Under the pieces are notes generated by a model that saw nothing but the letters and a program-made list of their open reading frames with translations, was not told where the DNA came from and searched no databases. DNA of 64,000 nt from Candidatus Nanoarchaeia archaeon (lineage in GTDB: Archaea; Nanobdellota; Nanobdellia; Woesearchaeales; GW2011-AR4): positions 36,495 through 100,494 of the forward strand of contig DATDOM010000093.1 in assembly GCA_035293285.1 (NCBI GenBank), read 5' to 3'. A program made the position numbers and the translations under genes. Of this stretch, positions 15,588 to 50,031 are shown piece by piece; the first letter of the stretch is position 1, and each line of letters begins with the position of its first letter.

Positions 15588-15590
15588 ACT

Positions 15591-17726: not shown

Positions 17727-17742
17727 TTTGAATCACCAGTTA

Positions 17743-20631: not shown

Positions 20632-20660
20632 TCGATTTATTACACCAATTTCAATTAACT

Positions 20661-20725
20661 TTCGCTCCAATGAAGGCGAATGTGCGAATTGCTAACAATG
20701 TATGCCGAGCAATTGGCGAGGCCTA
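20661..20725 (+). repeat. Conserved intergenic element, family 1, copy 2 (more diverged)
   Basis: ttcgctccaatgaaggcgaa...acaatgtatgccgagcaattggcgaggc. Hairpin arms differ from the other copies but remain complementary (ttcgc/gcgaa). Confidence 0.5.
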
Positions 20726-20895
20726 TCTAAAAGTCGTCACAAAGACGGCTTATTTAACTCATAATTTGTCCTAACTTAAAAACCCAAATACGACGGATTT
20801 AAACTAATTCTAAACCTACAAATTAAATTTCAAAATTGGTGGCATAAAGTAGGATAATGGTAAGATATTTAAATACATTGTGCATTTTCAGGTGC

Positions 20896-28100: not shown

Positions 28101-28113
28101 TTAAGTTTCCCTA

Positions 28114-28419
28114 TCAGAAAATTTGTTTTACGTGACCTACACTAAATGCAGACACTATTGGTGATGTAGTTTTAAATTTCTCCCTTTCAACCATGTATTT
28201 TAGATTAGAGCCCTGCATGTTTTTAATGAGGTCATCAATTTTTATTATGTGCACCATCTGATTTTCCTTTATAACTATTTGCAAATCAAATTCTTGCTTA
28301 TCCAACTCATTCTCCACCGGGCAAATTTTCTTCACTTTAAATCCCCCGGCTATATGGTTCCGGATATGATATACTGAATTTGATTTGGTTATTGCAAAAA
28401 TGTCATTCATTATTTTCAA
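28114..28419 (-). CDS. Hypothetical protein between the two transketolase subunit genes
   Basis: 101-aa ORF filling the gap between tktA and tktB on the same strand. No recognisable motif. Confidence 0.3.
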   Translation of the reverse strand: MKIMNDIFAITKSNSVYHIRNHIAGGFKVKKICPVENELDKQEFDLQIVIKENQMVHIIKIDDLIKNMQGSNLKYMVEREKFKTTSPIVSAFSVGHVKQIF

Positions 28420-28422
28420 CCC

Positions 28423-29268
28423 CTAATTAAAAGATTTTATGTCGATACTCTCAATTTCTTCAATTGCTTTTTTGTATTCTTCGTCATTCGGGGCTTTGCC
28501 GTGGAATTTGTGGTTTAGCTCCATGAATGAAACTCCTTTTCCTTTTATTGTGTTTGAGATTATCATTGTGGGCTTCCCATTTTTAGTTTCGCTGGCAGTA
28601 TCAAGCGCTTTTACAACTTCATCCATGTCGTGGCCGTTTATGCTTATCACATTCCAGCCAAATGACTTCCATTTTGACTCTGCATCGCCTAAGTCCATAA
28701 CGTCAACTGTTTTTCCCGTTTCCTGAACCTGGTTTTTGTCAAGGATTGCTATTAAATTATCAAGCTTGTAAAACGGAGCTGCCATTGATGCCTCCCACAC
28801 AGAGCCTTCCTGTGCCTCTCCATCTCCAATCATCACATAAACTTTCGAACTTTTTTTATCAAGCCTGTTTGCAAGAGCAACACCGACTGAAAAGCAGATT
28901 CCCTGCCCTAGCGAGCCTCCGGCAAACTCAATTCCCGGAGTGTTTAGTTCAGGATGTCCCTGGAGCATTCGGTTGATTTTTCTGAAACCGTCAAGCTCCG
29001 ATTTTGGAAAATATCCCTTGTTTGCCAATACAACATATAATCCCGGGCTTGCGTGGCCCTTGCTCAAAATGAACCTGTCCCTGTTTTCTGACTTCGGATT
29101 TTTCGGGTCTACATTTAATTTATAGAAGTAAAGCGCAGTAAGCATGTCAATTTCGCTTAACGAGCCTCCTGGATGGCCGGACTGGGCCTTGTAAATCACG
29201 TCAATAATCTCTTTTCTAAATGATTTTGCTTTTTCTTTTAATTTGAGTATTAGTTCCCTGTCTGCCAT
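28423..29268 (-). CDS. tktA: Transketolase, N-terminal subunit (ThDP-binding)
   Basis: SGHPGGSLS, GSLGQG, MIGDGEAQEG ThDP-binding motifs; 281 aa. Confidence 0.85.
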   Translation of the reverse strand: MADRELILKLKEKAKSFRKEIIDVIYKAQSGHPGGSLSEIDMLTALYFYKLNVDPKNPKSENRDRFILSKGHASPGLYVVLANKGYFPKSELDGFRKINRMLQGHPELNTPGIEFAGGSLGQGICFSVGVALANRLDKKSSKVYVMIGDGEAQEGSVWEASMAAPFYKLDNLIAILDKNQVQETGKTVDVMDLGDAESKWKSFGWNVISINGHDMDEVVKALDTASETKNGKPTMIISNTIKGKGVSFMELNHKFHGKAPNDEEYKKAIEEIESIDIKSFN

Positions 29269-36646: not shown

Positions 36647-37332
36647 CTTGACCTGCCTTTTTTTGAGAACCTTTCTGCAAATATTTTCCTTGTTATCAAA
36701 AACCCGTCGGAAATCTTGACTTTTGACTTGCCGCGCCCGTCGTCTTTTGACCTGTCATTGTACGGGAGCATTATCTCTTTTATCCTGTAATTATTTTTGA
36801 GCGCAATGATTATGGTCTCAACTGTTGAATCCGCGCCCGAGCCTTTTATCTTTTTTTCATAGCTCTCTATCTTAAACAGCTTCATTCCTGAATTGACATC
36901 CCTAATCCACGTGAAATAGAGGATATTGACAAGCATTGTATGAAACAAATTTGGAAAGCGGTTTACGAAATTTATGTCGCCAAGCCTTCTGCCGCCGTTG
37001 ACAAGGTCATAGCCTTTTTTTGCACTGTTGAAAAGCGTCCTGATGCCGTTTATCGAGTAAGTCCTGTCACAGTCAATGACTAGCATGTGGGTGTGGCCCC
37101 TTTTTCTTGCATTTATCAGCGATTCCTTCAGGCCTTCCCCATAGCCGTGCTTTTTCCTTAAGAAAACGTCAACTCCAAGCGATTTTGCAATTTCCCTTGT
37201 CTTGTCTGGAGAATGGTCGTCGCTTACTATAATGTCGAAGTCATATTTCTGCCGTATTTCTTTAATCATGTACCTGATATTCTGCTCCTCATTTCTTGTC
37301 GGCAGCAAAACACAGAGGCTTATGCCCTTCAT
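36643..37332 (-). CDS. GT2 glycosyltransferase (Dpm1-like)
   Basis: LCVLLPTRNEEQNI...IVSDDHSPDKT. Confidence 0.75.
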   Translation of the reverse strand: MKGISLCVLLPTRNEEQNIRYMIKEIRQKYDFDIIVSDDHSPDKTREIAKSLGVDVFLRKKHGYGEGLKESLINARKRGHTHMLVIDCDRTYSINGIRTLFNSAKKGYDLVNGGRRLGDINFVNRFPNLFHTMLVNILYFTWIRDVNSGMKLFKIESYEKKIKGSGADSTVETIIIALKNNYRIKEIMLPYNDRSKDDGRGKSKVKISDGFLITRKIFAERFSKKGRSR

Positions 37333-37859
37333 TTATTCAGTTCCTCGTATTTTTTTAGTGTCTCTTTCATGAAATCCCCGAGGTGCTTGTAGTGCGGTGA
37401 TGTTATGATGTTTTTGTCAACAACTGCAGGGCCGTCCACATAAGTTGCGCCGGCATTGTTAATGTCGTCCTTGATGCTGTAATACCCTGAAATTTTTCTT
37501 CCCTTGACAACTTTGGCTGAAATCAGGAGCTGCGAGCCGTGGCAGACTGACGCTATCACTTTTCCGGCCTTGTTAAAATCAGCGATGAAATCAAGCACTT
37601 CCTTGTCCTGCCTGATATATTCAAGTGCCTTTGCGCCGCCAGGAATCATCAATAAGTCATAGTCTTTTTCCTTTATGCCTGCAATGTCGCGCGTCGGGAC
37701 TATTTTTGTCCCTAAATCTCCCTGTACAGTCTCCATTCCCCTTATTGCAACGTCAACCTTAAACCCAGCTTCCTGAAGCCTGTAAAACGGGTAAATAAAT
37801 TCGTGGTCCTGCACCCTTTTTCCTGTAATTATCAATGCCTTTTTCATTTTATCCTCCAA
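37329..37859 (-). CDS. pfpI: DJ-1/PfpI-family intracellular protease/amidase
   Basis: ASVCHGSQLL nucleophile elbow; 176 aa. Confidence 0.8.
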   Translation of the reverse strand: MEDKMKKALIITGKRVQDHEFIYPFYRLQEAGFKVDVAIRGMETVQGDLGTKIVPTRDIAGIKEKDYDLLMIPGGAKALEYIRQDKEVLDFIADFNKAGKVIASVCHGSQLLISAKVVKGRKISGYYSIKDDINNAGATYVDGPAVVDKNIITSPHYKHLGDFMKETLKKYEELNK

Positions 37860-37907: not shown

Positions 37908-39722
37908 TCAAAGCTCTTCATCCAAAATCGGAATCATCATGTTTTCCTTTAATTCTTTCCTGTCCAAAAACGGCCACATGTCTTCAAGAGGGCTTTGGGA
38001 CATCGAGCCGTCTTTTTTCATTATTGTCTTTAGCCTCGGGCTCAAAATCTCATTATTACCCAATACAACCTCGCAAAAAACAGGCCCGTCTGATTCTATT
38101 ACTTCCAGAATTTTGTGGAGCTCCGAATGGTTATTTATCCTTTCGGTTTTTATTTTAAATGATTTTGCAACTGAAACCATGTCAGGAAAAGTCAGGCCGC
38201 TTTCCCTGTCAGAGCCGACGTGAAACCCTCCGAAGTTTGCATCCTGCATTGCCTTTATCGAAAGGTATGAATTGTTGTTGAACAAGAATATTTTTATCGG
38301 CAGGCTGTGATGCACAACAGTCTGAAGCTCCTGGATATTGAACATGAAGCTTCCTTCTCCTGCAATGCATATGGTTCTTTTTTTATCGTTTGCAAAGCAC
38401 GCGCCTATTGCACCGGGCAACCCAAAACCCATTGAAGCAAGACCGCTTGAAGTAAAAAATTTCTGCCCTTTTTTTACCTTAAAAGTCTGGAATGTTGTCG
38501 TAAAACTTGTTCCCATGTCTGTGACAATCACATCATCTTTTGAAAGGCTGTCTGATAACTTATCAATAAAAACATAGGAGCTTACAACTTTTTTTTCCTT
38601 AAGGTAAGCTGGCAGCACAACAGGATATTTCAAAACCCATTTTTTGCAGGTTTGCACCCACTCTTTGTAATTATTTTCATTTTTATCTTTTAGTGAAGAC
38701 AGCTGTAAATTCATCTCTGACAGGAATTCTTTTGCATCAGAATTTATTGCGGTGTCTGCCTTGAATGGCTTGTCATTAAGCTCTGACTTGTCAATATCAA
38801 CAAAAACTTTTTTTGAGCCCCTTCCAAAAGCGCTGAAGTTAAACCCTGTCTGGGGAATTGAAAGCCTGTTTCCGACAGCTATTATCAGGTCTGAATTCTG
38901 GACAGAAAAATTAGCGCCCCTCTGGCCGAACAGGCCAGGCCTTCCTATGTAAAACTCATTTTCATTGTCAACCAAGTCTGCGCCGTTCCATGTTGTTAAT
39001 ACAGGAATCTTCAATCTTGAAATCAATGAATCCATTTCTTTTTCTGCTTTTGCAAGCTTTATTCCATTGCCGACCCACAAGACAGGCCGCTTTGATTTTT
39101 TGAGAAGGCTTATGCACTTTGAAACATTTTCTTTTAGTTTTTCTTTTGAATCAAAAATAGGGGCTTCTTCCTTGGAAGGCCTGAATTCCTTTAACTTGTC
39201 CGGCTCAATGGAACCTGACTGGACGTTTAATGGAATATCGAGCCACACAGGGCCGCTTCTTCCGCTTTTTGCAATGTGCACTGCTTTTTGAAGCTCGTAT
39301 TTTATCTCGCCAGGGTCTTTTACCATCACTGCGTATTTTGTAATTGGCTTTACTATGCTTATTATGTCTATTTCCTGAACTCCCCTCTGCCTTAGATTTG
39401 TCCCAAGTATTGTGTCTTTTAGTGATATCTGGCCTGAAAGATAAATGCAGGGTGTTGAATCAATCCACGCACCGGCAACTCCAGTTACTGCATTAGTTCC
39501 GCCAGGGCCTGTTGTAACCATTCCAACTCCAAATCCATTGACCCTTGCATATGACTCAACTGCCATTGAAAGGGCCTGCTCGTGGTGCGTTGAAACAGGC
39601 CTTACAGACTTGCTTTTACCAAGGGCATCGTTCATATACATTGAGCCCCCTCCGGGAATCGAGAATATGTGCTTTACCCCAAGGGACGAGACAAAATCAA
39701 TGATGTAATCTGCCACTCTCAT
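37908..39722 (-). CDS. AHAS-like thiamine-diphosphate-dependent enzyme (YerE-like candidate)
   Basis: Three-domain ThDP enzyme: SIPGGGSMYMNDAL...TGPGGTNAVTG (Pyr domain), central domain, ...CIAGEGSFMFNIQEL (PP domain GDGx motif variant); 604 aa. Confidence 0.75.
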   Translation of the reverse strand: MRVADYIIDFVSSLGVKHIFSIPGGGSMYMNDALGKSKSVRPVSTHHEQALSMAVESYARVNGFGVGMVTTGPGGTNAVTGVAGAWIDSTPCIYLSGQISLKDTILGTNLRQRGVQEIDIISIVKPITKYAVMVKDPGEIKYELQKAVHIAKSGRSGPVWLDIPLNVQSGSIEPDKLKEFRPSKEEAPIFDSKEKLKENVSKCISLLKKSKRPVLWVGNGIKLAKAEKEMDSLISRLKIPVLTTWNGADLVDNENEFYIGRPGLFGQRGANFSVQNSDLIIAVGNRLSIPQTGFNFSAFGRGSKKVFVDIDKSELNDKPFKADTAINSDAKEFLSEMNLQLSSLKDKNENNYKEWVQTCKKWVLKYPVVLPAYLKEKKVVSSYVFIDKLSDSLSKDDVIVTDMGTSFTTTFQTFKVKKGQKFFTSSGLASMGFGLPGAIGACFANDKKRTICIAGEGSFMFNIQELQTVVHHSLPIKIFLFNNNSYLSIKAMQDANFGGFHVGSDRESGLTFPDMVSVAKSFKIKTERINNHSELHKILEVIESDGPVFCEVVLGNNEILSPRLKTIMKKDGSMSQSPLEDMWPFLDRKELKENMMIPILDEEL

Positions 39723-39751
39723 ATTATCACAGGACCAATATTTGAAAAAAA

Positions 39752-42304
39752 TTAATTTTCATCCGAGCTCTTGTTAATCATATTTTCTTTAAATTCCTTT
39801 CTATTGAGGAAAGGGTACATGTCCTCAAGCGGCTTTGCTATCCAGTTCCCGTCCTGCTTTACTTCAAGGATTATCCTCGGAATTATTTCCTGCTCCGGGT
39901 CAATATTCAGCTCGCAGACTGCCGGCCCTTTTATTTTCAGAAAATCAGCGAGAGATTTTTCAAGGTTTTTGCTTTCAGAAACACTGCAATATTCAATCCC
40001 GTAAGCTTTGCAAATGCCGCTTATGTAGCCTGAGCTTAGCTTATTTGTCCTAAACGAAGCAGTGTAACGCTGGCCAAAGTATTCTTTTTGGATTTTCCTG
40101 AGATATGAGTGGCCGCCGCTGTTCAAGACAAATATCTTGATTGGCATTTTTGCATAAGAAATTGTTTCAAGCTCCTGGGCCTGCCTCAAAAACCCGTGGT
40201 CCTCGCAAATACACACGATTCCTGAATTTGGCGAAGACGCAACTGCACCTATTGCCGCCGGGAGGGAAAAGCTTGGATTGTCAAGGCCTGTTGAGGCAAT
40301 TACTCTCTGGCCGCTTTTGAACTTGAACATCTGGATAAAATAAATCAATGGAGAGCCGCCGTCTACTGCAATCACGGAATTTTCTTTTAGCTCAGAAGAC
40401 AGCGATTTTATGAAAAAATAAGGATTCACAAAGCCTTTCTTTTTGTCAATTGGAGATTCAGAGTATTTTGACTTGTAGTAATCACATTTTTTAATCCAGC
40501 CCGAAAATTGCGTGTTTACTTTTTTTGTTGACTTTACGAGTTCGCATATGAATTCCTTTGCGTCAGCATTTATTGCAATTGCGGGCTTTATTGTCTTTTT
40601 TCTGAGCTCATTACTGTCAATGTCTACAACAATTTTTTTTGCGTGCATTGCAAAGGCTCCAAAATTCCTCCCAAGATGAAGAATTGAAAGCCTGGCGCCA
40701 ATGCTTATGACAAGGTCTGCATTTTGAATAATGAAATTTGCGCTTCTCTGCCCGTAAGCGCCGGCCCTCCCATAATTAAAAGGATTTTTTTCAGTGAGGA
40801 GGTCAGAGCCTTTTCTTGTGGTGAGAACGGGAATTTTGAGGGCCTTAATCAATTCAACAAAATCATCTTTTGCTCCCGAAATCCTTGTGCCGCTTCCTGC
40901 AAAAATCACCGGCCTTTTTGAGGAATTGAGGAGAGAAATAACTTCTTTTATCTGCGACTGCATTATCCTGAGATTTTTGGATTCACTTTCATTAAACGAG
41001 TCCATTTTTTTCTCATCAATGTTGCTTCCAAGAACATCAATCGGAATATCAAGCCACACAGGGCCTTTTCTTTTGTTGTTTGCAATGTAAAGGGCTTTTT
41101 CAAGATGATATTTTATTTTATGAGGGTCATTTATTCTTACGCAATATTTTGTAATCGGCTTTACTATGCTTATTATGTCTATTTCCTGAACTCCAAGCTG
41201 CCTTAAGCCATCATTAGCAATCTGGTCTGACTGGCACTGGCCCGATATTGCCAAAACAGGAGTGGAGTCCACCCATGAATCTGCTATTCCGATAAGGGAA
41301 TTTGCACACGCTGCGCCTGATGAAACAATTGCAACCCCGACATTTCCTGTAAGCTTTGCAAATGATTCTGCTGCCATAATTGCCGCCTGCTCTGTCTGGG
41401 TTGATATGTACTTCATTTCAGTATTCTTCCCTATGGAATCTATGAGGTGCATGTTTGTGTTGCCGGGAACCAAAAAAATATTTTTTAGCGAGTTTTTCTC
41501 AAGAAAAGAAGCTATGAAATCAGACACCTTCACCATTGAATCATTTTTCTTTACAAGTATTGCCTCAACTTGTCCCTCAATGAAATGCGGCCTGAGACTT
41601 ATTATTTTTTTTGCATCAAGGGTGTCTCCAAAATCAATTATGCCTTTTCTTGATTTGTCCATTACTTTTCCTTTAAGCAGGATTATGACATCCTCAGGAT
41701 TTTTTTCAAGGGAACTGACAAAATCATCACAGCCCGAAAATTTCTGCAAAGATATGCTGCACTTTTCGAACTTTTTTTTGACATTGTAGTAAATGCTTGA
41801 GTTAATCATGCTTATATAATTGTAGTTCTTTAAGTCAAATGAAATGCTTTCTATTGTCTCATAGCCAAGGCCTGCCCTGCCGTAATTGTCCTCTATCCTG
41901 ACAAGGTCCCTTTTGTTCGTGGAATTTTCAACTTCCATGATGAAAATGCCACCATCAGAATCTGACTTTGTTGAATGGAAAACTGCCTTTGGAATCAAAA
42001 GGCCGTCGCCCGGAGACATTTTTGTTTTTTCAGAAAGAGTTGAGCAGACTGCATTTCCATAAAGCACAATGAGTGAAGTCTTTTTGCTTGGGTGGCAGTG
42101 CATTGAGGTTGTGTGGCCTTTTTTTATGTAAAGAATCCAGACAGCAACCCTGTCGTTTTGGTAAATGAGATATTCATAGCCCCAGGGCTTTTTCACAATT
42201 GCCTTTGAATAATCAAAAAAATCATCCCTGATTTTTGAGGAATCTATATTAATCCTGCCAAGCCTGTCCTTGTCAACACCTTTAAATGCAAGAGACTTAA
42301 TCAT
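39752..42304 (-). CDS. Fusion of N-terminal cupin domain with AHAS-like ThDP-dependent enzyme (paralog of the upstream gene)
   Basis: First ~150 aa KPWGYEYLIYQND...MHCHP...GDGLLIP is a cupin_2 pattern. The rest is a full three-domain ThDP enzyme sharing the exact segment GVQEIDIISIVKPITKY with the 604-aa neighbour. Confidence 0.7.
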   Translation of the reverse strand: MIKSLAFKGVDKDRLGRINIDSSKIRDDFFDYSKAIVKKPWGYEYLIYQNDRVAVWILYIKKGHTTSMHCHPSKKTSLIVLYGNAVCSTLSEKTKMSPGDGLLIPKAVFHSTKSDSDGGIFIMEVENSTNKRDLVRIEDNYGRAGLGYETIESISFDLKNYNYISMINSSIYYNVKKKFEKCSISLQKFSGCDDFVSSLEKNPEDVIILLKGKVMDKSRKGIIDFGDTLDAKKIISLRPHFIEGQVEAILVKKNDSMVKVSDFIASFLEKNSLKNIFLVPGNTNMHLIDSIGKNTEMKYISTQTEQAAIMAAESFAKLTGNVGVAIVSSGAACANSLIGIADSWVDSTPVLAISGQCQSDQIANDGLRQLGVQEIDIISIVKPITKYCVRINDPHKIKYHLEKALYIANNKRKGPVWLDIPIDVLGSNIDEKKMDSFNESESKNLRIMQSQIKEVISLLNSSKRPVIFAGSGTRISGAKDDFVELIKALKIPVLTTRKGSDLLTEKNPFNYGRAGAYGQRSANFIIQNADLVISIGARLSILHLGRNFGAFAMHAKKIVVDIDSNELRKKTIKPAIAINADAKEFICELVKSTKKVNTQFSGWIKKCDYYKSKYSESPIDKKKGFVNPYFFIKSLSSELKENSVIAVDGGSPLIYFIQMFKFKSGQRVIASTGLDNPSFSLPAAIGAVASSPNSGIVCICEDHGFLRQAQELETISYAKMPIKIFVLNSGGHSYLRKIQKEYFGQRYTASFRTNKLSSGYISGICKAYGIEYCSVSESKNLEKSLADFLKIKGPAVCELNIDPEQEIIPRIILEVKQDGNWIAKPLEDMYPFLNRKEFKENMINKSSDEN

Positions 42305-42356
42305 TTTGTATTTTCAAACAAAAAACTTTAAATATTTATGGGTGAAATTTTTAAAG

Positions 42357-43313
42357 ATGGGAAAAACTAGAATTCTTATAAGCGGCGCAACAGGATTTGT
42401 CGGCTCAAACCTTGCAAGAAGGCTGTGTAAAACAAGCGAAGTCCACATAATATCAAGAAAAGGCTCAAACCATTGGAGGCTTAAGGACATCGCATCAGAT
42501 TTAACAATACACGAGGCAAGCCTAACTGACGAAAATGCGCTAAATGAAATTGCAAAAAGCGCAAAGCCTGACATAGTCTACCACCTTGCAACAACAGGCT
42601 TATACGGCGGAAAGCACCCTGATGACAGAGAGGTCATAAACACAAGCTTTCTTGGCTCAGTCAAACTGATAAATGCGTGCTCAAAAGCAGGATTCAAATG
42701 CTTTGTAAACACAGGCAGCTCATCTGAATACGGCATCAAGGAAAGCCCAATGAAGGAGACAGACTCCTGCAGCCCAATCAACACTTACGGAGTTGCAAAG
42801 CTTGCGTCAACACTTTATGCATCAAACTTTGTAAAAAAAAATGACCTGCCGATAGTTAACGTGCGGCTTTTCTCGCCTTTCGGGCCTTACGACCACCCTT
42901 TAAGGCTGATATCATATGCATCGCTTAATGCTGCAAAGGGAAAAGACCTGGAGCTTTCCGACCCAAACTCAGTTCGGGACTATATTCACGTTGACGACGT
43001 TGTTGACTTTTATACAAGGCTTGCAAGGCTTGGTGAGGAGCTTAAAGGAGAAACATTAAATCTTGGTTCCGGGCAGGAGATGAAAATTTCCTATGTAGTC
43101 AAAAAAATAATTGAGTTTTCGGATTCAAAAAGCAAAGTGCTTTGGCAAAAGGCACTAAAGCGCGATTTTGACACGGAGCACTGGCAGTCTGACATGACAA
43201 AATCAAAAAAACTTGTCAAAGGATTCAAGATAACTCCTTTTGATGATTCTCTTAAGAAAGCAGTTGAATGGTTTAAGGAAAATCACGGGCTTTATGATAA
43301 TTTGAATATTTAA
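42357..43313 (+). CDS. NAD-dependent epimerase/dehydratase (extended SDR; CDP-sugar reductase/epimerase candidate)
   Basis: ISGATGFVGSNLARRL Rossmann start and YxxxK. ORF-track start 42270 overlaps the upstream gene, so ATG 42357 (MGKTRILISGATG) is preferred. Confidence 0.7.
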   Translation: MGKTRILISGATGFVGSNLARRLCKTSEVHIISRKGSNHWRLKDIASDLTIHEASLTDENALNEIAKSAKPDIVYHLATTGLYGGKHPDDREVINTSFLGSVKLINACSKAGFKCFVNTGSSSEYGIKESPMKETDSCSPINTYGVAKLASTLYASNFVKKNDLPIVNVRLFSPFGPYDHPLRLISYASLNAAKGKDLELSDPNSVRDYIHVDDVVDFYTRLARLGEELKGETLNLGSGQEMKISYVVKKIIEFSDSKSKVLWQKALKRDFDTEHWQSDMTKSKKLVKGFKITPFDDSLKKAVEWFKENHGLYDNLNI

Positions 43314-43386
43314 TTCGTTAATAATTATTCTAACTAAATTAAATTAATCATTTTAAACTTTATTTGGCTTCGGTAAAAATCTATTT

Positions 43387-43507
43387 AGGGCTGCCATCGA
43401 ACTCGGCTACGCATATCAAATCGTGGGATGACATTCCCCGTAAGGGACGTCCCCCTTGTCATCTTTTCGTCCGTATAATCAGAGCCTCGTAAATTGATGG
43501 CAGCCCT
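43387..43507 (+). repeat. ~120-nt conserved structured element, family G, copy C
   Basis: Terminal stem agggctgccatc / gatggcagccct, core ...CTCGGCT..ATCAAATCGTGGGATGACATTCCCCGTAAGGGACGTCCCCCTTGTCATC...TCCGT..AAT...GCCTCGTAAA. Ends 77 nt before ddhA. Confidence 0.65.
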
Positions 43508-43583
43508 ATAGTATACTGATGGTTTTTTGTTGCCTGTGTGGCAATCTCTTTGAAAAGATTTAAAAACGAAGTGGACAAACTGA

Positions 43584-44366
43584 TTGTCAATGCAGGCAGT
43601 AATATTGTGCGGGGGCAGGGGAACCAGGCTTAGGGAGGAAACTGAGTTCAGGCCAAAGCCATTGGTCGAGATAGGGGGAATGCCAATACTATGGCATATA
43701 ATGAAAATATACTCTCATTATGGGGTCAAGGACTTTATTCTCTGCCTTGGCTACAAGGGCCACATGATAAAAGAATTCTTCATGGACCTCGAAATTTATG
43801 GAAAAGACATAACCTACAATCCAAAGACAAAAAAAATAATACATCACAACGGCAGCGACGGCGAGGACTGGAACATCACTTTTGCAGAAACGGGCCTTGA
43901 CACTTATACCGGGGCAAGAATCAAAAGAATTGAAAAATACATCACAGGGGATGACTTCTTCCTTACTTATGGCGACGGGGTTGCAGACATAAACATAAAA
44001 GAGCTTTATGAATTCCACAAAAAGCACGGAAAGATTGCAACTGTAACTGCAGTCCAGCCCTTTGCAAGGTTTGGAGTTTTAAACATTGACAATGAGCTCA
44101 TATCAGATTTTACAAAAAAACATGTCGTGCACACAAACAGGATTGACGGCGGATTTTTTGTCTTTACCAAAAAAGTCTTTGATTACCTAAGCAATGACAG
44201 AAAATGCGCGCTTGAAGACCAGCCACTCAAAAACCTTGTCAAGGACAACCAGTTCGTGGCATTCAGGCACGACGGGTTTTGGCAGTGCATGGACATACAG
44301 CAGCATGCAGAAGGCTTAAATGAACTCTGGAATTCAGGCGAGGCTCCCTGGAAAATCTGGCAATGA
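43584..44366 (+). CDS. ddhA: Glucose-1-phosphate cytidylyltransferase
   Basis: MQAVILCGGRGTRLREETEFRPKPLVEIGGMPILWHIM... is the canonical RfbF/DdhA N-terminus; 260 aa. Confidence 0.85.
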   Translation: MSMQAVILCGGRGTRLREETEFRPKPLVEIGGMPILWHIMKIYSHYGVKDFILCLGYKGHMIKEFFMDLEIYGKDITYNPKTKKIIHHNGSDGEDWNITFAETGLDTYTGARIKRIEKYITGDDFFLTYGDGVADINIKELYEFHKKHGKIATVTAVQPFARFGVLNIDNELISDFTKKHVVHTNRIDGGFFVFTKKVFDYLSNDRKCALEDQPLKNLVKDNQFVAFRHDGFWQCMDIQQHAEGLNELWNSGEAPWKIWQ

Positions 44367-45355
44367 ATCAAAAAACAAATTCTGATTACTGGAGGGGAAA
44401 AAATGCCCTTGTTACAGGCGCTACAGGAATACTTGGAAGCTGGCTTGTAAAAACGCTTGTTGAAAAAAAGTCAAATGTTGTAATAATCAAAAGAGACCAT
44501 TTTCCGAATTCAGAGCTTGAGCTTTCAGGCGCATTAAAAAAAGTAAGCATAGTTCACGGGAGCCTTGAAGATTATTGGACTATTGAGCGGGCGCTTAATG
44601 AATATGAAATTGACACTTGCTTTCATTTAGGCGCACAGGCGCTTGTGCAGACGGCGAACAGGAGCCCGCTTTCCACTTTTGAGGCAAACCTGAAAGGCAC
44701 GTGGAATGTTCTTGAAGCGTGCAGGCACCTTAAGCTTGTAAAGCGAATTGTTGTTGCATCAAGCGACAAGGCTTATGGCGAGCACGAAAAGCTGCCTTAT
44801 GATGAAGACTCAAAATTAAACGGATTGAACCCTTATGACGCGTCAAAAAGCTGCTGCGACATAATTGCGCAGTCTTACGCACACTCATTTAAAATGCCGA
44901 TTGGAATTGCAAGATGCGGAAATATTTATGGCGGAGGAGACCTGAATTTTAGCAGGATAATTCCAGGAACAATAAAATCCCTTCTTGAAAAACAGGCGCC
45001 TGTAATAAGAAGCGACGGCACATTAGTAAGGGATTATTTTTATGTCGAGGACGCAGTTGATGCATTTTTGATGCTTGCAAAAAGCCAAGATGATGAAGAA
45101 ATGCATGGACACGTATTTAACTTCAGCCCGGAGAGCCCAATTTCAGTAATTGATCTGGTCCGAAAAATATCCAAAATTGCAAATTCAAATCTTAAGCCAA
45201 AAATCCTTTCAGAGGCTTTTAACGAAATCCAGAAACAATACCTTGACTGCTCAAAAGCAAGAAAACTGCTCAACTGGCAGGCAAACACCAAACTTGACGA
45301 CGGCCTTAAAAAAACATTTGAGTGGTACCAAAAATTCTTTGACAGCGCTGGCTGA
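44363..45355 (+). CDS. ddhB: CDP-glucose 4,6-dehydratase
   Basis: ALVTGATGILGSWL, YDASK, extended SDR of RfbG type. ATGA overlap with ddhA. Confidence 0.8.
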   Translation: MNQKTNSDYWRGKNALVTGATGILGSWLVKTLVEKKSNVVIIKRDHFPNSELELSGALKKVSIVHGSLEDYWTIERALNEYEIDTCFHLGAQALVQTANRSPLSTFEANLKGTWNVLEACRHLKLVKRIVVASSDKAYGEHEKLPYDEDSKLNGLNPYDASKSCCDIIAQSYAHSFKMPIGIARCGNIYGGGDLNFSRIIPGTIKSLLEKQAPVIRSDGTLVRDYFYVEDAVDAFLMLAKSQDDEEMHGHVFNFSPESPISVIDLVRKISKIANSNLKPKILSEAFNEIQKQYLDCSKARKLLNWQANTKLDDGLKKTFEWYQKFFDSAG

Positions 45356-45428
45356 TTATCCTGACTGATTGAAGCCTTAACTTTGCAATGTTCACTTTTA
45401 TTGGCATCAAAAAGCTCTCATTTCATTC

Positions 45429-45579
45429 GGGCTGCCATCAGCTCGCACTCTTTTATTGTTCTTTTAAGGGAAAAATTCCGGGACTTGCAAGAGCTCGCCT
45501 CTTGCTCGCTCACGTCCCTGCAATTTCCTTTTTCCATAAACCATTTCATTAAAAGTGCTCGCAAAGTTAGATGGCAGCC
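45429..45579 (+). repeat. Family G-related structured element, copy E (same terminal stem as copy C, divergent core with four GCTCGC units)
   Basis: Terminal stem gggctgccatc / gatggcagcc. 5' AGCTCGCAC and 3' GTGCTCGCAAAG flanks match the family. The interior carries gagctcgcc/tgctcgctc repeats instead of the TGACATT...TGTCA core. Confidence 0.5.
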
Positions 45580-45643
45580 TTCAGCTTTTCAATGCCCCCT
45601 TTTATCACAAGATTTATAATAATTATTTGATAATCCGATAAAA

Positions 45644-46960
45644 ATGGAAGGGGACGAGGAATTGATAAGGCAGCAGATAAAAATTCTTGTTGAAAAATTG
45701 TACGAGTTGAAATTCAGGGACAGGAGTTTTAATGCGGGCACTGACAAGCTTAACTATGCCGGGCGCGTTTTTGATGAAAAAGAAATGACAAGCGCAGTCG
45801 ATTCGCTTCTTGATTTTACGCTTACCCACGGAAACAACTGCGTCAAGTTTGAGCGGGAATTCGCTAAATCACTCAATTCAAAGTTTTCTGTCCTTACAAA
45901 TTCAGGCTCTTCTGCAAACCTCATTGCAGTCACATCGATGAAGTCAAAGAAGCTAAAACACAGGCTCAAATCCGGCGACAGGGTAGTCACGCCAGCAGTA
46001 ACATTCCCCACAACTCTTGCGCCAATAATTCAAAACGGCCTAAAGCCGGTCTTTGTGGACGCAGAAATAGGGACTTACAATGCAGATGAAGAATCACTAA
46101 AGGGAGCTGTGAACAGCGGCATCAGCGCAATTATAATTCCGCACACTCTTGGAAATCCGAACAACATGGACCTTTTGATGGATTTAAAGAAAGATTACAA
46201 CCTTTTGCTTTTGGAAGACACGTGCGACGCAATCGGCGGCACTTTTGGCTCAAAAAATCTTGGAACTTTCGGCGAGCTTGGAACTGTGAGCTTTTATCCT
46301 GCGCATCACATGACAATGGGCGAAGGCGGCGCGATAATGACTCAGGATGCAGTAACGCTAAAAATCCTTAAATCAATAAGGGAGTGGGGAAGGGACTGCT
46401 GGTGCCTGCCAGGAATGTCAAACACCTGCGGTAAAAGATTCGGATGGGAGCTTGGAGACCTGCCAGAGGGATATGACCACAAATATATCTATTCTGAGAT
46501 AGGATACAACTTAAAAGTCCTTGACTTACAGGGAGCAATCGGGCTTGAGCAGCTAAAAAAACTTCCTATGTTTATTGAAAAAAGACGGGAAAATTTTACA
46601 GCACTTTTTAATCACTTAAAAAAATATGAAGATAAAATAACACTTCCAAAATGGCACAAAAAAGCAAATCCTTCGTGGTTTGCATTTCCAATAACATTAA
46701 AGGATGGATGCGGATTTTCAAGAAAAGAAATAACTTCATTTCTTGAAGAGAAAAAAATAGAGACCCGGATGGTTTTTGCAGGTAACATATTAAAACAGCC
46801 TGCATACATTGACATAGAAAGGGAAATCCACGGAACACTCAAAAACACAGACAAGATAATGAACGACACTTTTTTTGTCGGAGTCTATCCAGGCATAGAT
46901 TCACAAAGAATGGAATTTTTGCTTAAGTCATTTGATGATTTTTTCTCGGGATTAAGCTGA
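45644..46960 (+). CDS. ddhC: CDP-4-keto-6-deoxy-D-glucose 3-dehydrase (E1; PMP-dependent, [2Fe-2S])
   Basis: DegT/DnrJ/EryC1-family fold of RfbH size (438 aa). PAHHMTMGEGG has His at the usual Schiff-base Lys position, and the CWC-x7-C iron-sulfur motif (DCWCLPGMSNTC) is diagnostic of E1. Confidence 0.8.
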   Translation: MEGDEELIRQQIKILVEKLYELKFRDRSFNAGTDKLNYAGRVFDEKEMTSAVDSLLDFTLTHGNNCVKFEREFAKSLNSKFSVLTNSGSSANLIAVTSMKSKKLKHRLKSGDRVVTPAVTFPTTLAPIIQNGLKPVFVDAEIGTYNADEESLKGAVNSGISAIIIPHTLGNPNNMDLLMDLKKDYNLLLLEDTCDAIGGTFGSKNLGTFGELGTVSFYPAHHMTMGEGGAIMTQDAVTLKILKSIREWGRDCWCLPGMSNTCGKRFGWELGDLPEGYDHKYIYSEIGYNLKVLDLQGAIGLEQLKKLPMFIEKRRENFTALFNHLKKYEDKITLPKWHKKANPSWFAFPITLKDGCGFSRKEITSFLEEKKIETRMVFAGNILKQPAYIDIEREIHGTLKNTDKIMNDTFFVGVYPGIDSQRMEFLLKSFDDFFSGLS

Positions 46961-46974: not shown

Positions 46975-49269
46975 TTAAGAACCTGATTTTAAATCACTTT
47001 TTCTGAATCTGCCAAAAAATGCAAGAGAAAGAAGCACTAAAATCGTTGCAACTGTTATAATTGCGCCATACATAAATGATTTTGGCTTATAGTCAAATTC
47101 CACAATGCTGTCATTTCCGCTGACATAAACTGCGCTGAAAATTCCGTTTGCCCTGTAAATTCTCTTTTCTTTTCCGCTTATGTATGATTTCCAGCCGGGA
47201 TAAATTGAATACTGCTCGCTCATTATTATAAACCCACTTTCCTTTGATTTTACAAAAAGCCTGTCATTTGATTCATATCTGATGTCAAGCGGCCCGGCAT
47301 CTGTTTTTTCTTGCTTAAGGGAGGAAACTGCCTTGGCAAATTTTTCCTCTGATATTTGGCCTTCATTTGCAAATATGTCTGGCAGAATTTTTTTGCCTTT
47401 GTCTTTCATTATTTTAAGCACAGAAATATCAGCCTCGCTTGGTTGTTTTGCAATAACAAAAATATCCATTGCGTTTAGGGCATCCTGCTCCAAATTGGCA
47501 ATGTTATTTTCCATTATTACTATTGTGTTTTTTTCGTCAAAATTTTCATTTAACATCAAAAAATAAGCAATATTCAGTGCATTTTCGTCTCCTAAAACTA
47601 AAATTGCATTTTGGGCCATTCTTGCCCTTGGCAAAAACTTCTCGTTTTTGTAAAGATACGGCCCGTCTGATTTTCTTGGCTGGCAGACTGGATAATCCTT
47701 GTCATAATCTCCGCACTTCTCAAATTTTTTGACAAGTGAAAACCCTGAAATATTAACTGGAGCCTGGGAGGTAAGGTATTTTAAATTGAGAATTCCAAGC
47801 ATCTTGTCGGGCTCGCTTTGAGCAGCGCTCAGGTAAACCGGCATATAGTTGAAATTCCAGACATTGTCATAGCCGTATACCTCTTCAAGACCCAATGGAA
47901 CGGAATACATGTCAGTCCCCCAGTCAATCCCGTTTGTCTCAACCTGGTTAAACCTGAAAATTTCCTTGTCGTTAGCCATATAATTCATTACCTGGTTTTT
48001 TGAAAGAGGATTTCTTACGTCATCAAACATCATTTTTTCAGGGCCGAAAAACATTGCATTTGCCAAAGCAGCCAATGCAAGCAATAAAACCGCAAAATTG
48101 AGGAAATGCTCGCGCCTGAACTTGAATCTTGATTCCACTGCTTTTGACAAGTTTGAAACTCCAATGCCAATGAGGACTGAGAATGGGAAAATGAAAAGCA
48201 CGAGCACCTTGTATGCCCCCCTTATTTTATTTATGAACGGGAAGTATTGCCACAAAATCTGCATGAGGAAGGACTTTGACAAAAGCAAAATCCCAAACAA
48301 CAGGAGCGAAAAAACCAGCAGTATTTTTTTCTTTTTTGCGCTCTGAAATGCAAATAGGAGAAAAACAAATGAAATGCCGAATGTCGCGAAAAGAAGCGGC
48401 ACAGCGTTCATAAGATTGATTGTGCCGTCACCGACAAGGGCTTCGTAGGAAAGCCCTTCTGCCCTGACATTCAGGGTTTTCACCAAATCTATTGAAGGAA
48501 GCAGCTTTATTGCCGACAGCCCAAAAAAAACAAGCGCAAATACAAGCCCGACAAGCACAACCTTGAAAATTCTTTTGAAAATATTTTTCCCGAAAATATT
48601 CGCAGCCATCAGGAGAAAAATGAAAATTCCGGTAAAAATCAGCTCCTGAGCGCTGCCTCCAAGAAGCAAAAGAGAAAATCCAATCCCTGCAAAAACGGAA
48701 TTTGAAGCCCATTTTTTTGAGCTTAATGCAAGAAGCAAAAACAGCAAAATAAAAGGCAAGAATGCGTACACATTTATCACATTCATGTGACCGCTCCACA
48801 CTTCGCTTACAAGATTTCTGTTGAGCATGTACACTAAAGCAGTAATGAACGAGACCTTTGCGTCCTCTTTCATGTAAAAATACATGAAAAGGTACATTCC
48901 AATTCCTGCGAGGATAAAATGGAACATGTAAGCGAGCTTTAATCCCTGCCACGCTGTAGGCGAAAGCATCAGAATTAGCCAGGAGAAATTAAATGCAGGA
49001 AGCTGGGGCTTTGCAAAAAAAGGCATCCCGCCTAATGTATAAGGGCTCCAAAGAGGAATGTGAAACTTTGAAAGCGACTCTTTGAGAACATAAAAGTTTG
49101 AGGCGTGGTACGCAAAATCAGTGCCTGTTTTTGGAATTCCAACATCCCCCCTCATCTGCACCCAATAATTGCCTGAAAAGTAATCACTGAACACAATAAA
49201 CACAGAAATGAATAAAAGAGCAATGAAGAAAATATGAATCTTGTTTTCCCTGATTTTTTGAAGAATCAT
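46975..49269 (-). CDS. Large polytopic membrane protein (YfhO-like / glycan-processing candidate), hypothetical
   Basis: 764 aa, more than 12 hydrophobic helices plus a C-terminal soluble region. Confidence 0.4.
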   Translation of the reverse strand: MILQKIRENKIHIFFIALLFISVFIVFSDYFSGNYWVQMRGDVGIPKTGTDFAYHASNFYVLKESLSKFHIPLWSPYTLGGMPFFAKPQLPAFNFSWLILMLSPTAWQGLKLAYMFHFILAGIGMYLFMYFYMKEDAKVSFITALVYMLNRNLVSEVWSGHMNVINVYAFLPFILLFLLLALSSKKWASNSVFAGIGFSLLLLGGSAQELIFTGIFIFLLMAANIFGKNIFKRIFKVVLVGLVFALVFFGLSAIKLLPSIDLVKTLNVRAEGLSYEALVGDGTINLMNAVPLLFATFGISFVFLLFAFQSAKKKKILLVFSLLLFGILLLSKSFLMQILWQYFPFINKIRGAYKVLVLFIFPFSVLIGIGVSNLSKAVESRFKFRREHFLNFAVLLLALAALANAMFFGPEKMMFDDVRNPLSKNQVMNYMANDKEIFRFNQVETNGIDWGTDMYSVPLGLEEVYGYDNVWNFNYMPVYLSAAQSEPDKMLGILNLKYLTSQAPVNISGFSLVKKFEKCGDYDKDYPVCQPRKSDGPYLYKNEKFLPRARMAQNAILVLGDENALNIAYFLMLNENFDEKNTIVIMENNIANLEQDALNAMDIFVIAKQPSEADISVLKIMKDKGKKILPDIFANEGQISEEKFAKAVSSLKQEKTDAGPLDIRYESNDRLFVKSKESGFIIMSEQYSIYPGWKSYISGKEKRIYRANGIFSAVYVSGNDSIVEFDYKPKSFMYGAIITVATILVLLSLAFFGRFRKSDLKSGS

Positions 49270-49910: not shown

Positions 49911-50031
49911 GGTTAGCGGCTTCAAAGTTCACACAACTATTCTTCAAGGGCTGACATTCCCCGGATGGGGCAACCCCCTTGTCATCTTTTTTGTTGTTCG
50001 TTTTTGGAACTTTGACCTGATGCCGCTAACC
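49911..50031 (+). repeat. ~120-nt conserved structured element, family G, copy D
   Basis: Terminal stem ggttagcggc / gccgctaacc, core GGGCTGACATTCCCCGGATGGGGCAACCCCCTTGTCATC. The 3' stem half contains the ATG at 50020 that the ORF track used as a start. Confidence 0.6.

Follow-up and report, generated by a model that had tools for sequence, protein, structure and literature searches.

A three-part module of cupin, ThDP enzyme and DJ-1/PfpI protein beside ddh genes in an archaeal glycan locus

Known sugar-branching systems and the ddh genes of the archaeal locus

Yersiniose A is produced in Yersinia pseudotuberculosis by a pathway comprising DdhA–D, YerE, and YerF. The other known class of ThDP-dependent sugar-branching enzymes is the E1αβ type (αKADH2), exemplified by KbDH-α/β in kibdelomycin biosynthesis; known E1αβ branching enzymes come from actinomycete antibiotic pathways, and we know of no cupin or DJ-1 partner reported there. 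To our knowledge, no DJ-1 protein is a fixed part of a nucleotide-sugar or ThDP pathway. Cupins such as RmlC, AscE, and FdtA, which act as epimerases or ketoisomerases, are standard in deoxysugar pathways. JanthE of Janthinobacterium sp. HH01 (PDB 8rph) is encoded in the gene order ddhA–ddhB–ddhC–JanthE–SDR–acetaldehyde dehydrogenase–aldolase, and the genes for JanthE and for its orthologue in P. extremaustralis both come immediately after ddhA–ddhB–ddhC. In the JanthE/ErwE loci, the donor is derived from the aldolase and the acetaldehyde dehydrogenase, a YerF-like SDR is present (together with E3 in P. extremaustralis), and both cupin and PfpI are absent. JanthE is a characterized YerE-like enzyme that accepts ketones and has CDG as a variant cofactor motif (PMC12247030, PMC12188165), and enzymes of this type accept longer 2-oxo acids as well (PMC12247030).

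We analyzed a 64-kb stretch of DNA from a DPANN archaeon (the window). As a preliminary description had stated, it carries genes for DdhA, a DdhB-like protein, an E1-type 3-dehydrase, an SDR, and ThDP proteins of 604 and 850 residues, all of which proved to be present. That description had proposed a C-branched 3,6-dideoxyhexose for a surface glycan; this is still the best reading, although the module described below is not restricted to 3,6-dideoxy sugars. We consider it fairly probable that the locus directs the formation of a yersiniose/erwiniose-like, C-acyl-branched 3,6-dideoxyhexose that is attached to a surface glycan. The logic would be shared with the yersiniose A pathway, in which DdhA/B/C generate CDP-4-keto-3,6-dideoxyglucose before a ThDP-dependent acyl addition at C4, but DdhD and YerF are absent from the window. 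The adjacency of the JanthE gene to ddhA–ddhB–ddhC is a further likeness. Unlike the JanthE/ErwE loci, however, the window has no aldolase, YerF orthologue, or E3, and contains a cupin-fused degenerate paralogue and PfpI.

The glucose-1-phosphate cytidylyltransferase RfbF/DdhA (43584–44366, plus strand) scored 325.6 bits against TIGR02623 (cutoff, 300) and was 48% identical to Janthinobacterium RfbF; it would form CDP-glucose. The following gene (44363–45355, plus strand) encodes a divergent DdhB-like 4,6-dehydratase, whose top NCBIfam match, TIGR02622 (CDP-glucose 4,6-dehydratase), reached 208 bits, below the cutoff of 278, and this score counts against our main reading. Its sequence contains the SSDKAYG and YDASK motifs, and orthologues with 40–58% identity are placed between RfbF and RfbH in six related loci (L015, L038, L041, L048, L063, and L069). 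Judging from family membership and motifs, this SDR may produce CDP-4-keto-6-deoxyglucose. The E1-type 3-dehydrase DdhC/RfbH (45644–46960, plus strand) scored 592 bits against NF011936 (cutoff, 423). Alignment revealed the [2Fe-2S] Cys motif C194-x57-C252-x-C254-x7-C262 and the replacement of the PLP Lys by His (YPAHH), confirming both features previously ascribed to this enzyme, and the ddh genes as a set carried the expected catalytic motifs. This Fe-S/PMP enzyme is predicted to remove the 3-OH, with an electron donor that would be encoded elsewhere or be of a non-DdhD type. In agreement with the preliminary description, a tblastn search of the 64-kb window with the P. extremaustralis E3 query (E ≤ 1e-3) returned no E3/DdhD match, and the gene was also absent from all 83 related loci, suggesting that E1 function depends on another reductant; this absence, too, weighs against our main reading.

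An extended SDR of the NAD-dependent epimerase/dehydratase family (SDR347; ORF 42270–43313, plus strand) is divergent from the cupin–ThDP fusion gene. Translation probably begins at the ATG at 42357, from which the protein reads MGKTRILISGATGFVG, giving a gene at 42357–43313 (plus strand). SDR347 could act as a ketoreductase, at C4 or on the branch, or as an epimerase. Comparison of loci and sequences indicated that the YerF-like SDRs of JanthE loci are not its orthologues, and no YerF-like branch reductase was found in the window.

Two unequal ThDP proteins related to JanthE

The 604-aa protein (37908–39722, minus strand) contains the Pfam domains TPP_enzyme_N/M/C, a catalytic Glu in HHEQ, and a GEG…NN cofactor motif. 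Its top PDB match was JanthE (472 bits, 38% identity), which was likewise the closest solved relative of the 850-aa protein (339 bits, 30% identity), whereas AHAS structures scored about 250 bits against the window ThDP proteins. In a neighbor-joining tree, both window proteins grouped with JanthE in one clade that excluded AHAS I of E. coli, and JanthE itself was nested within the clade of cupin-associated ThDP enzymes. The window proteins share the DC-superfamily three-domain ThDP fold of JanthE, whose GDG motif is also non-canonical, being CDG as against GEG in the 604-aa enzyme. The earlier link of these proteins to YerE-type branching enzymes was upheld by the JanthE clade and scores and by the AHAS models; the YerE homologue PpYerE (5ahk), through which YerE was compared, matched no better than AHAS (266 vs 254 bits) and belonged to a different clade.

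Since AHAS large-subunit models were the top NCBIfam matches (369–379 bits) and homologues are often annotated publicly as "acetolactate synthase large subunit," we considered whether both proteins could be ordinary acetolactate synthases for branched-chain amino acids or acetoin. The AHAS large subunit (IlvB/IlvI/IlvG) does share the fold, domain order, and catalytic Glu, and the motif of the 604-aa enzyme is near-canonical. This explanation is nevertheless highly improbable, because every AHAS NCBIfam model remained below its cutoff for the window proteins, and far below in cases such as 379 vs 538; JanthE scored about 220 bits above any AHAS structure; a regulatory subunit and ilvN/ilvC/ilvD are absent nearby, the context consisting of glycan genes throughout; and the 850-aa copy lacks the GDG…NN cofactor motif. 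Judged by their sequences, the window ThDP proteins are not acetolactate synthases, and the 604-aa protein is presumably a JanthE/YerE-like ThDP carboligase that serves as the catalytic subunit. Phylogeny and locus comparison suggest that it would decarboxylate a 2-oxo acid, which need not be pyruvate as in YerE, and add the acyl anion equivalent at C4 of CDP-4-keto-3,6-dideoxyhexose.

The 850-aa protein (39752–42304, minus strand) is a fusion in which a Cupin_2/MannoseP_isomer match (aa 36–139) precedes TPP_enzyme_N/M/C (aa 259–798). Its cupin region (aa 1–256; 41537–42304, minus strand), the signature domain of the module, comprises a cupin barrel and a second beta subdomain in the AF2 model (pLDDT 86.6), and the C-terminal remainder is an AHAS-fold three-domain ThDP-like module. 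The cupin contains the motifs KKPWGYEYL and SMHCHPSKK, and its invariant residues are W41, G42, E44, Y45, H69, H71, K74, H110, E124, E126, K131, R132, R136, Y141-G142-R143, Y148-E149, and N160-Y161-N162. S. aureus CapF (SDR plus cupin, PDB 2zkl) was only 19% identical to this cupin and has another set of motifs; unlike CapF, the window cupin has an extra beta subdomain of ~85 aa and continues into a ThDP module in the same protein.

The two ThDP proteins had been described as duplicates, but they are not equivalent. With the motif register set against JanthE, E. coli AHAS I, and PpYerE, and conservation assessed over 120 homologues, E701-D702-H703 was found to replace GDG and N728-S729 to replace NN in the 850-aa fusion, which retains the catalytic Glu305. 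The GDG…NN motif is degenerate throughout one monophyletic clade of fusions (Glu retained in 25/28), and wherever the sequence downstream of a degenerate fusion was long enough, the locus also encoded a separate canonical ~600-aa enzyme, mostly as the next gene. The D-to-E change in the short enzyme (GEG) tracked the presence of a degenerate partner (17/26 vs 2/20), and the PP domain was the most diverged region between the two window paralogues. These sequence comparisons make the 850-aa protein a probable, though non-canonical, partner for the 604-aa enzyme. Since active motif variants exist, such as CDG in JanthE, its degenerate motif need not abolish cofactor binding. We infer that this diverged paralogue, with an apparently degenerate diphosphate/Mg site and a retained PYR-domain Glu, would most likely pair with the 604-aa enzyme as an asymmetric dimer in which one site is competent, an arrangement that would place the cupin domain beside that site.

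The cupin, ThDP enzyme and PfpI module in other genomes

The gene downstream of that for the 604-aa enzyme, which the preliminary description had passed over, encodes a 176-aa DJ-1/PfpI protein (37329–37859, minus strand) that scored 158 bits against TIGR01382 (cutoff, 139). Conservation analysis indicated that its Cys-His pair (SVCHG) is conserved, and its top PDB match was Arabidopsis DJ-1D (132 bits); it shares the fold and the nucleophile-elbow Cys-His with the glyoxalase III enzymes DJ-1D and PH1704. This gene is part of the ThDP unit and is its third constant member. Among related loci, 47 had complete flanks; a ThDP enzyme (AHAS-like or E1αβ-type) accompanied the cupin in all 47 and PfpI did so in 46, a synteny that sets PfpI proteins of this type apart from known DJ-1 proteins, as does their one fusion to E1β (L040). 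In 15 of the 47 loci, an E1α/E1β pair replaces the AHAS-like enzyme beside the cupin and PfpI; no module-tied pair of this kind occurs in the window. The cupin–ThDP fusion, which had been called atypical, turned out to belong to a large family, with no fewer than 120 clusters of full-length proteins, at least 180 species genomes, and at least 418 representative clusters that passed E ≤ 1e-30. The fusion partners of the cupin are AHAS-like ThDP enzymes, E1α, HAD_2, and an Fcl-like SDR, and the loci that carry the module, in hundreds of uncultured bacteria and archaea, are devoted to surface glycans. The cupin, ThDP enzyme, and DJ-1/PfpI protein constitute a widespread, previously undescribed three-part module.

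RfbF and RfbH occurred together in just 12 of the 47 full-flank loci, indicating a module portable from one sugar pathway to another. The nearest relatives of the window ThDP pair (57–58% identity) have no ddh genes among their neighbors, which include HAD, NUDIX, Zn-ADH, PfkB, and SIS instead, so that the acceptor may vary by locus and the adjacency of ddh genes here could be partly fortuitous. These ddh-free relatives, the lack of RfbF plus RfbH in 35 loci, and the location of the ddh and ThDP sets on opposite strands in the window would fit two separate cassettes that happen to be neighbors within one large glycan island. The ThDP/cupin/PfpI set would then act on a different compound, such as a sugar built at the level of sugar phosphates, and the ddh genes would lead to a 3,6-dideoxyhexose of the ordinary, unbranched kind. 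Its reductase would be SDR347, which could be a 4-reductase of the paratose/abequose-synthase type. We regard such independence as unlikely, because in CPR and Verrucomicrobia, as well as in one gammaproteobacterial and one Micrarchaeota MAG, the ddh genes are interspersed with those of the module. RfbF, RfbG, and RfbH share one operon with PfpI, the cupin, and the ThDP enzyme in five CPR or gammaproteobacterial loci (L038, L041, L048, L063, and L069), and all three are also present in a Micrarchaeota locus (L015). Moreover, JanthE-clade enzymes directly follow ddhC in cultured bacteria, and co-occurrence in 12 of 47 loci, drawn from at least five phyla, greatly exceeds what chance would give for one rare pathway.

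Possible roles of the cupin and PfpI, and the flanking genes

For the branched-sugar pathway that we favor, the cupin and DJ-1/PfpI would be constant accessories of ThDP branching systems of this sort, most likely preparing the 2-oxo-acid donor or tailoring the keto-sugar or acyl branch, and their chemistry would have to be O2-independent (enediol/isomerase and Cys-His hydratase type). We tentatively consider that the cupin, PfpI, and, elsewhere, HAD_2 and a 2-hydroxyacid dehydrogenase make a special 2-oxo-acid donor for the ThDP enzyme. HAD would dephosphorylate a sugar or triose phosphate, the PMI-like cupin would form a 2-oxoaldehyde via an enediol, the glyoxalase-III-like PfpI would convert this into a 2-hydroxy acid, and Ldh_2, D-2HADH, or an SDR would yield the 2-oxo acid. 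This set would replace the aldolase and acetaldehyde dehydrogenase of erwiniose/JanthE clusters and is compatible with the branched-sugar model, altering the role of the cupin. Consistent with it, cupin–HAD_2 fusion proteins exist, a glyoxalase (DJ-1D) is the closest solved relative of PfpI, and a 2-hydroxyacid dehydrogenase recurs by non-homologous replacement (Ldh_2 in 12/47 loci, D-2HADH-like proteins in L048 and L063). An HpaI-like aldolase encoded in L052 and a galactarate/altronate-dehydratase-like protein that occurs in the loci of E1αβ type point in the same direction, and the cupin is 50–64% identical across phyla regardless of the sugar pathway, which fits an invariant small substrate. 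JanthE loci have the aldolase and acetaldehyde dehydrogenase without cupin or PfpI, and module loci nearly always lack these two enzymes (one exception being L033). However, the window has neither HAD nor 2-hydroxyacid dehydrogenase, which accompany the module elsewhere, leaving the chain incomplete here, and we know of no direct precedent for the proposed cupin reaction.

A further fusion joins the cupin to a GDP-fucose-synthase-like SDR, an architecture that argues against donor supply in that it is shared with CapF, which acts on an NDP-4-keto sugar. Such Fcl-like SDR–cupin fusions (about 576 aa) are common in E1αβ-type loci and suggest another possible but equally uncertain role, in which the cupin is an NDP-4-keto-sugar epimerase or ketoisomerase (AscE/RmlC/FdtA/CapF-like) that sets the configuration before or after ThDP addition, and PfpI is a detoxifying or housekeeping accessory. 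This role is a standard one for cupins in deoxysugar pathways and accords with the invariant His/Lys/Tyr residues, and the window pathway would be complete without HAD or a dehydrogenase. Conversely, the same conserved cupin lies beside CDP-dideoxy, heptose-type, and UDP-aminosugar-type sets, which is hard to square with one nucleotide-sugar substrate; cupin–HAD fusions are ill-suited to a nucleotide-sugar enzyme; and the near-obligatory PfpI (46/47 loci) is left without explanation.

The unit had been delimited at 37908–46960; the genes within it were located as described, but the minus-strand unit runs on through PfpI, a GT2, and an 847-aa TM protein, with successive gaps after 37908 of 48, −4, and −4 nt. 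The GT2 (229 aa; 36643–37332, minus strand), of the AglJ/dolichyl-phosphate hexose transferase type according to Pfam/NCBIfam, overlaps the PfpI stop by 4 nt, which places both in the same operon. The last gene of this operon encodes the 847-aa polytopic membrane protein (34103–36646, minus strand), which had no match in Pfam or NCBIfam; a hydropathy scan predicted 13–14 TM helices, and a soluble C-terminal domain precedes the final helix in a GT-C-like architecture. In the branched-sugar pathway, the co-operonic GT2 would pass the sugar to polyprenyl/dolichyl phosphate, and the GT-C-like membrane protein would then carry it to the final acceptor. At the other end of the locus, a gene convergent with rfbH encodes a 764-aa YfhO-like polytopic membrane protein (46975–49269, minus strand; weak YfhO match, 9 predicted TM helices in a hydropathy scan), a candidate GT-C transferase. 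Elsewhere in the window, a split transketolase (27153–29268) adjoins a transaldolase and looks like pentose-phosphate metabolism.

The ddh genes and the two ThDP proteins

ORF listing and family scans recovered all genes named in the preliminary description. On the minus strand, a tight five-gene operon encodes the 850-aa cupin–ThDP protein (39752–42304), the 604-aa ThDP protein (37908–39722), a DJ-1/PfpI protein (37329–37859), a GT2 protein resembling AglJ and dolichyl-phosphate-hexose transferases (36643–37332), and an 847-aa protein with 13–14 predicted TM helices in a GT-C-like layout (34103–36646). The ddhA, ddhB, and ddhC genes, located 1.3–4.7 kb from the ThDP genes, are divergently transcribed on the plus strand, where they follow an extended SDR gene (42270–43313) whose coding sequence probably begins with the ATG at 42357. 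RfbF/DdhA, the glucose-1-phosphate cytidylyltransferase (43584–44366), and RfbH/DdhC, the E1 3-dehydrase (45644–46960), exceeded their family cutoffs (TIGR02623, 325.6 bits versus 300; NF011936, 592 bits versus 423). The DdhB-like 4,6-dehydratase (44363–45355) scored below the cutoff of its best family (TIGR02622, 208 bits versus 278) and is 29% identical to proteobacterial DdhB; its Asp-Lys and YxxxK motifs are present, and the placement of its gene between ddhA and ddhC is kept in six other loci. E1 carries the pattern C194-x57-C252-x-C254-x7-C262 and a YPAHH motif in which His replaces Lys, which we take to be the [2Fe-2S] motif and the replacement described for the Yersinia E1. The ddh genes, from which a CDP-3,6-dideoxyhexose pathway had been proposed, thus retain the E1 Cys/His and the DdhB-like Asp-Lys and YxxxK motifs. 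No gene for the E1 reductase, E3/DdhD, had been seen in the window; likewise, E3/DdhD found no match within the 64 kb by tblastn or in any of 83 related loci by blastp. The window also encodes an archaeal-type PEP carboxylase, consistent with the Nanoarchaeia assignment.

Both ThDP proteins contain the TPP_enzyme_N, M, and C domains (PYR-TH3-PP architecture), and their top PDB match was the YerE-like enzyme JanthE (8rph), with 472 bits for the 604-aa and 339 bits for the 850-aa protein. AHAS entries reached at most 254 bits; the YerE homologue PpYerE (5ahk), at 266 bits, does not share the advantage of JanthE over AHAS. All AHAS NCBIfam models were far under their cutoffs (best, 379 versus 538). 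In a neighbor-joining (NJ) tree with JanthE and PpYerE as YerE-like references and E. coli AHAS I as the root, all cupin-associated ThDP enzymes, the two window proteins among them, formed a clade that also contained JanthE, with PpYerE outside it. The firm clustering with acetolactate synthases that had been considered as the alternative was not seen, since AHAS scores are sub-cutoff, 8rph is the best match, and JanthE shares the NJ clade. In addition, neither an ACT-domain (regulatory subunit) gene nor ilv genes were found in the window. On family cutoffs, PDB ranking, tree, and gene context we reject an ordinary AHAS, and by sequence the two proteins are YerE/JanthE-like. JanthE is an enzyme of Janthinobacterium sp. 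HH01 that joins ketones to 2-oxo acids of differing chain length; its motif, CDG, is unusual (PMC12188165, PMC12247030).

The two copies are not equivalent at the cofactor motif. The 604-aa protein has the catalytic Glu and GEG…NN, in which Glu replaces the Asp of GDG; in JanthE, a CDG variant is compatible with activity. In the 850-aa protein, Glu305 is retained and EDH…NS stands in place of the GDG-x(24-27)-NN feature. With the motif register checked against JanthE, AHAS I, and PpYerE, a set of 120 homologues that match the 850-aa protein over its full length displayed E-D(72%)-R/K/H at the GDG position and Ser for the Mg-binding Asn in 80%, often with Lys or Arg alongside. The PYR-domain catalytic Glu was retained in 119 of them. 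These degenerate cupin–ThDP fusions form one clade in the NJ tree, and every locus of sufficient contig reach that carries one also has a separate canonical enzyme of ~600 aa, mostly encoded by the very next gene. A second class of cupin–ThDP fusions retains GDG…NN and is the sole AHAS-like ThDP gene of its locus, except in L015 and L045. GEG for GDG occurred in 17 of the 26 short enzymes that accompany degenerate fusions versus 2 of 20 elsewhere (Fisher p 2e-4, uncorrected for phylogeny).

Because a ThDP site is shared by two subunits, one contributing its PYR domain and the other its PP domain, we infer that the 604-aa and 850-aa proteins may assemble into an asymmetric dimer with one competent site. 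The 850-aa protein, a natural ThDP paralogue with a dismantled cofactor motif that is nevertheless fused and syntenic, would be a candidate pseudo-enzyme partner. The paralogues are 41% identical and have diverged most in the PP domain. A stretch of ~60 codons is 73% identical in amino acids, and the adjacent genes share a 163-nt stretch with 80% identity (39232–39394 and 41043–41205). The high third-position identity in the ~60-codon stretch (67% versus 39% overall) suggests gene conversion or, alternatively, a strongly co-constrained segment (LRQxGVQEIDIISIVKPITKY).

The cupin–ThDP–PfpI module

The main interest of the locus is a conserved cupin–ThDP–PfpI module together with the cofactor-motif-degenerate fused paralogue, neither of which was described in the literature searched; a literature search on PfpI, cupin, and thiamine likewise returned nothing relevant. 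The cupin region (N-terminal 256 aa) is predicted to fold into a cupin barrel with a beta subdomain (pLDDT 86.6), and the neighbors found for it were generic cupins only. Searching 1.84 billion proteins with its profile retrieved 418 representative clusters at E<=1e-30, and a pattern scan located it in 180 species genomes, including those of DPANN archaea, CPR bacteria, Elusimicrobia, Omnitrophota, Verrucomicrobia, Ca. Brocadia pituitae, Nitrospira, SAR202, SAR324, and marine Alphaproteobacteria. Among the 47 loci flanked on each side by 4 kb or more, all had a ThDP enzyme (AHAS-like in 37, E1α/β in 15), 46 had PfpI, 31 had a HAD_2 protein of the beta-PGM family, and 12 had both RfbF and RfbH. 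The module is large, conserved, and unannotated.

Fusions link its parts. The cupin occurs alone (~255 aa) or as a fusion with AHAS-like ThDP, E1α (488 aa), HAD_2 (~467 aa), a GDP-fucose-synthase-like SDR, or ATP-grasp (666 aa), and an E1β–PfpI fusion has 486 aa. Proteins joining module parts include one encoded at 8276–9736 of locus L040, where PfpI is fused to E1β, and the proteins P0399, P0428, P0461, P0488, and P0410. The PfpI of the window scored 158 bits against a TIGR01382 cutoff of 139, its nearest solved relative is the glyoxalase DJ-1D, and among 63 homologues linked to the module at least 90% keep the nucleophile-elbow Cys-His. The locus reveals a module (cupin and PfpI, with or without HAD) tied to ThDP sugar-branching enzymes, which would place a DJ-1/PfpI protein in a defined pathway context, something we believe to be unusual for that family.

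Acyl-branched sugars and ThDP branching enzymes are known from a few Gram-negative bacteria, mycobacteria, and antibiotic producers, and the enzymes are sought as biocatalysts for chiral tertiary alcohols. To our knowledge, the surface glycans of DPANN archaea and CPR bacteria are essentially unknown. Gene content suggests that acyl-branched sugar chemistry may extend to both groups. B12-binding radical SAM proteins were present in 19 of the 47 loci, often several per locus, and HemN-like radical SAM proteins were also common; further genes of the module loci encode a conserved methyltransferase of 228 aa and a protein of ~290 aa without a Pfam match. This gene complement suggests CPR/DPANN glycans with heavily C-methylated or otherwise tailored sugars. 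A split transketolase in the window (27153–29268) clusters with E1β-like proteins and was considered as a module part; however, it scores as a genuine transketolase beside a transaldolase and probably serves pentose-phosphate metabolism.

Proposed acceptor and donor, and possible roles of cupin and PfpI

In its native locus (L084, AMWD01000002.1), JanthE lies in the order RfbF-RfbG-RfbH-JanthE-SDR-acetaldehyde dehydrogenase-4-hydroxy-2-oxovalerate aldolase-SDR-GT, an erwiniose-type layout that has been described (PMC9306805). In P. extremaustralis (L085), E3-RfbF-RfbG-RfbH precede tandem ThDP genes, a PpYerE-like one (572 aa) and then a JanthE-like one (610 aa). The physiological substrates of JanthE are not identified in the published JanthE papers; the neighboring ddhABC and aldolase genes suggest that its acceptor is CDP-4-keto-3,6-dideoxyglucose and its donor 4-hydroxy-2-oxovalerate.

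In five module loci (L038, L041, L048, L063, and L069), one operon reads RfbF-RfbG-(second cytidylyltransferase-like gene)-PfpI-cupin-ThDP-…-RfbH, and this set of genes is also present in the Micrarchaeota locus L015. In loci with ddh genes, the window included, the ThDP enzyme would add onto CDP-4-keto-3,6-dideoxyhexose, as supported by this recurrent interleaving of ddh and module genes and by the JanthE loci. The C-branched 3,6-dideoxyhexose route put forward in the preliminary description is partly supported and fits best among the models considered, given ThDP enzymes of the JanthE type, and we regard it as moderately probable. The nearest relatives of the window ThDP pair (57–58% identity) speak against it: they have HAD, NUDIX, Zn-ADH, PfkB, and SIS neighbors and lack ddh genes, which makes the module portable from one sugar pathway to another. 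A literature search on archaeal branched or 3,6-dideoxy sugars returned nothing relevant. A second RfbF paralogue (~263 aa; TIGR02623, 248 bits, under the cutoff) lies directly beside PfpI-cupin in ddh-containing loci (L038, L041, L063, L069, L052, and those of Lacunisphaera), which hints at a second CDP-activated intermediate.

Two readings may be considered for the cupin and PfpI proteins. On the donor side, HAD, cupin, PfpI, and a 2-hydroxyacid dehydrogenase might produce the 2-oxo-acid donor, a tentative reading that accords with the cupin–HAD fusions, with the recurrence of non-homologous 2-hydroxyacid dehydrogenases and a sugar-acid dehydratase in module loci, with the near mutual exclusion between the module and the aldolase/acetaldehyde dehydrogenase pair of JanthE loci, and with conservation of the cupin irrespective of the accompanying sugar pathway. 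The window is without the HAD, Ldh_2, and NUDIX genes known from other module loci. It would be complete without HAD or dehydrogenase if the cupin acted on the acceptor as an NDP-4-keto-sugar epimerase or isomerase; this role, for which the existence of CapF-like SDR–cupin fusions also speaks, is possible at a similarly low probability.

A 3-His pattern and a top match to cysteine dioxygenase suggested a dioxygenase, but the cupin family is common in lineages that we take to be anaerobic. Since many of its host lineages are presumably anaerobic, an O2-dependent role is unlikely. HAD_2 is unlikely to be GmhB, the heptose bisphosphate phosphatase, because several loci have a ~180-aa protein beside SIS in addition to HAD_2, which is moreover found both in loci of the ddh type and as a fusion with the cupin.

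A more novel but tentative reading is that the distinctive 250-aa cupin, the DJ-1/PfpI Cys-His enzyme, and often the HAD_2 phosphatase might constitute an undescribed O2-independent set with an obligatory link, often by fusion, to ThDP sugar-branching enzymes from two superfamilies. Such a set might make the branch donor by a new route from 2-oxoaldehyde via 2-hydroxy acid to 2-oxo acid, or perform a new tailoring step on acyl-branched sugars, with the 850-aa protein as the pseudo-ThDP subunit of an asymmetric heterodimer whose catalytic partner is the 604-aa enzyme.

Other elements of the window

A second nucleotide-sugar set (19740–23860) comprises an NTP transferase, a UDP-glucose/GDP-mannose dehydrogenase, another NTP transferase, and an extended SDR (22925–23860). 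This SDR shares 35% identity with the one encoded after the P. extremaustralis JanthE orthologue, a closer match than the extended SDR beside the ThDP genes (42357–43313).

GC-rich structured elements lie in AT-rich intergenic DNA at 43385–43510, 45426–45584, and 49948–49990, upstream of rfbF, rfbH, and a 679-aa ORF, respectively. Two of them share the closing inverted repeat GGGCTGCCATC…GATGGCAGCC (fold z-scores −5.4 and −5.0), and their 43-nt inner hairpin, which ends in a T-run (GGGATGACATTCCCC…CCCCCTTGTCATCTTTT), is found again at 49948. An Rfam search gave no match for these elements, which may represent terminators, a MITE-like repeat, or regulatory RNA.

Bacterial-type lipid genes are present in this archaeal MAG at 730–6610, encoding a FabG-like SDR (730–1464), a methyltransferase–FabG fusion (1439–3199), two PlsC-like acyltransferases (4305–5589), and a GpsA-type NAD-dependent glycerol-3-phosphate dehydrogenase (5636–6610). 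A low-GC island at 12000–18000 (GC 0.31 versus about 0.40), followed by a 5S rRNA gene (18698–18813), encodes a STAND/Zot-like NTPase (12441–13181), a Schlafen-group-3-like helicase (13593–15587), and a RadC-like JAB protein (16351–17010), and is possibly a defence or mobile island. Finally, two free-standing LAGLIDADG endonuclease-like ORFs were found, one on the minus strand (24829–25851) and one on the plus strand (57690–58877), the latter with HTH domains and located in a low-GC stretch (56–60 kb) of the glycosyltransferase region.
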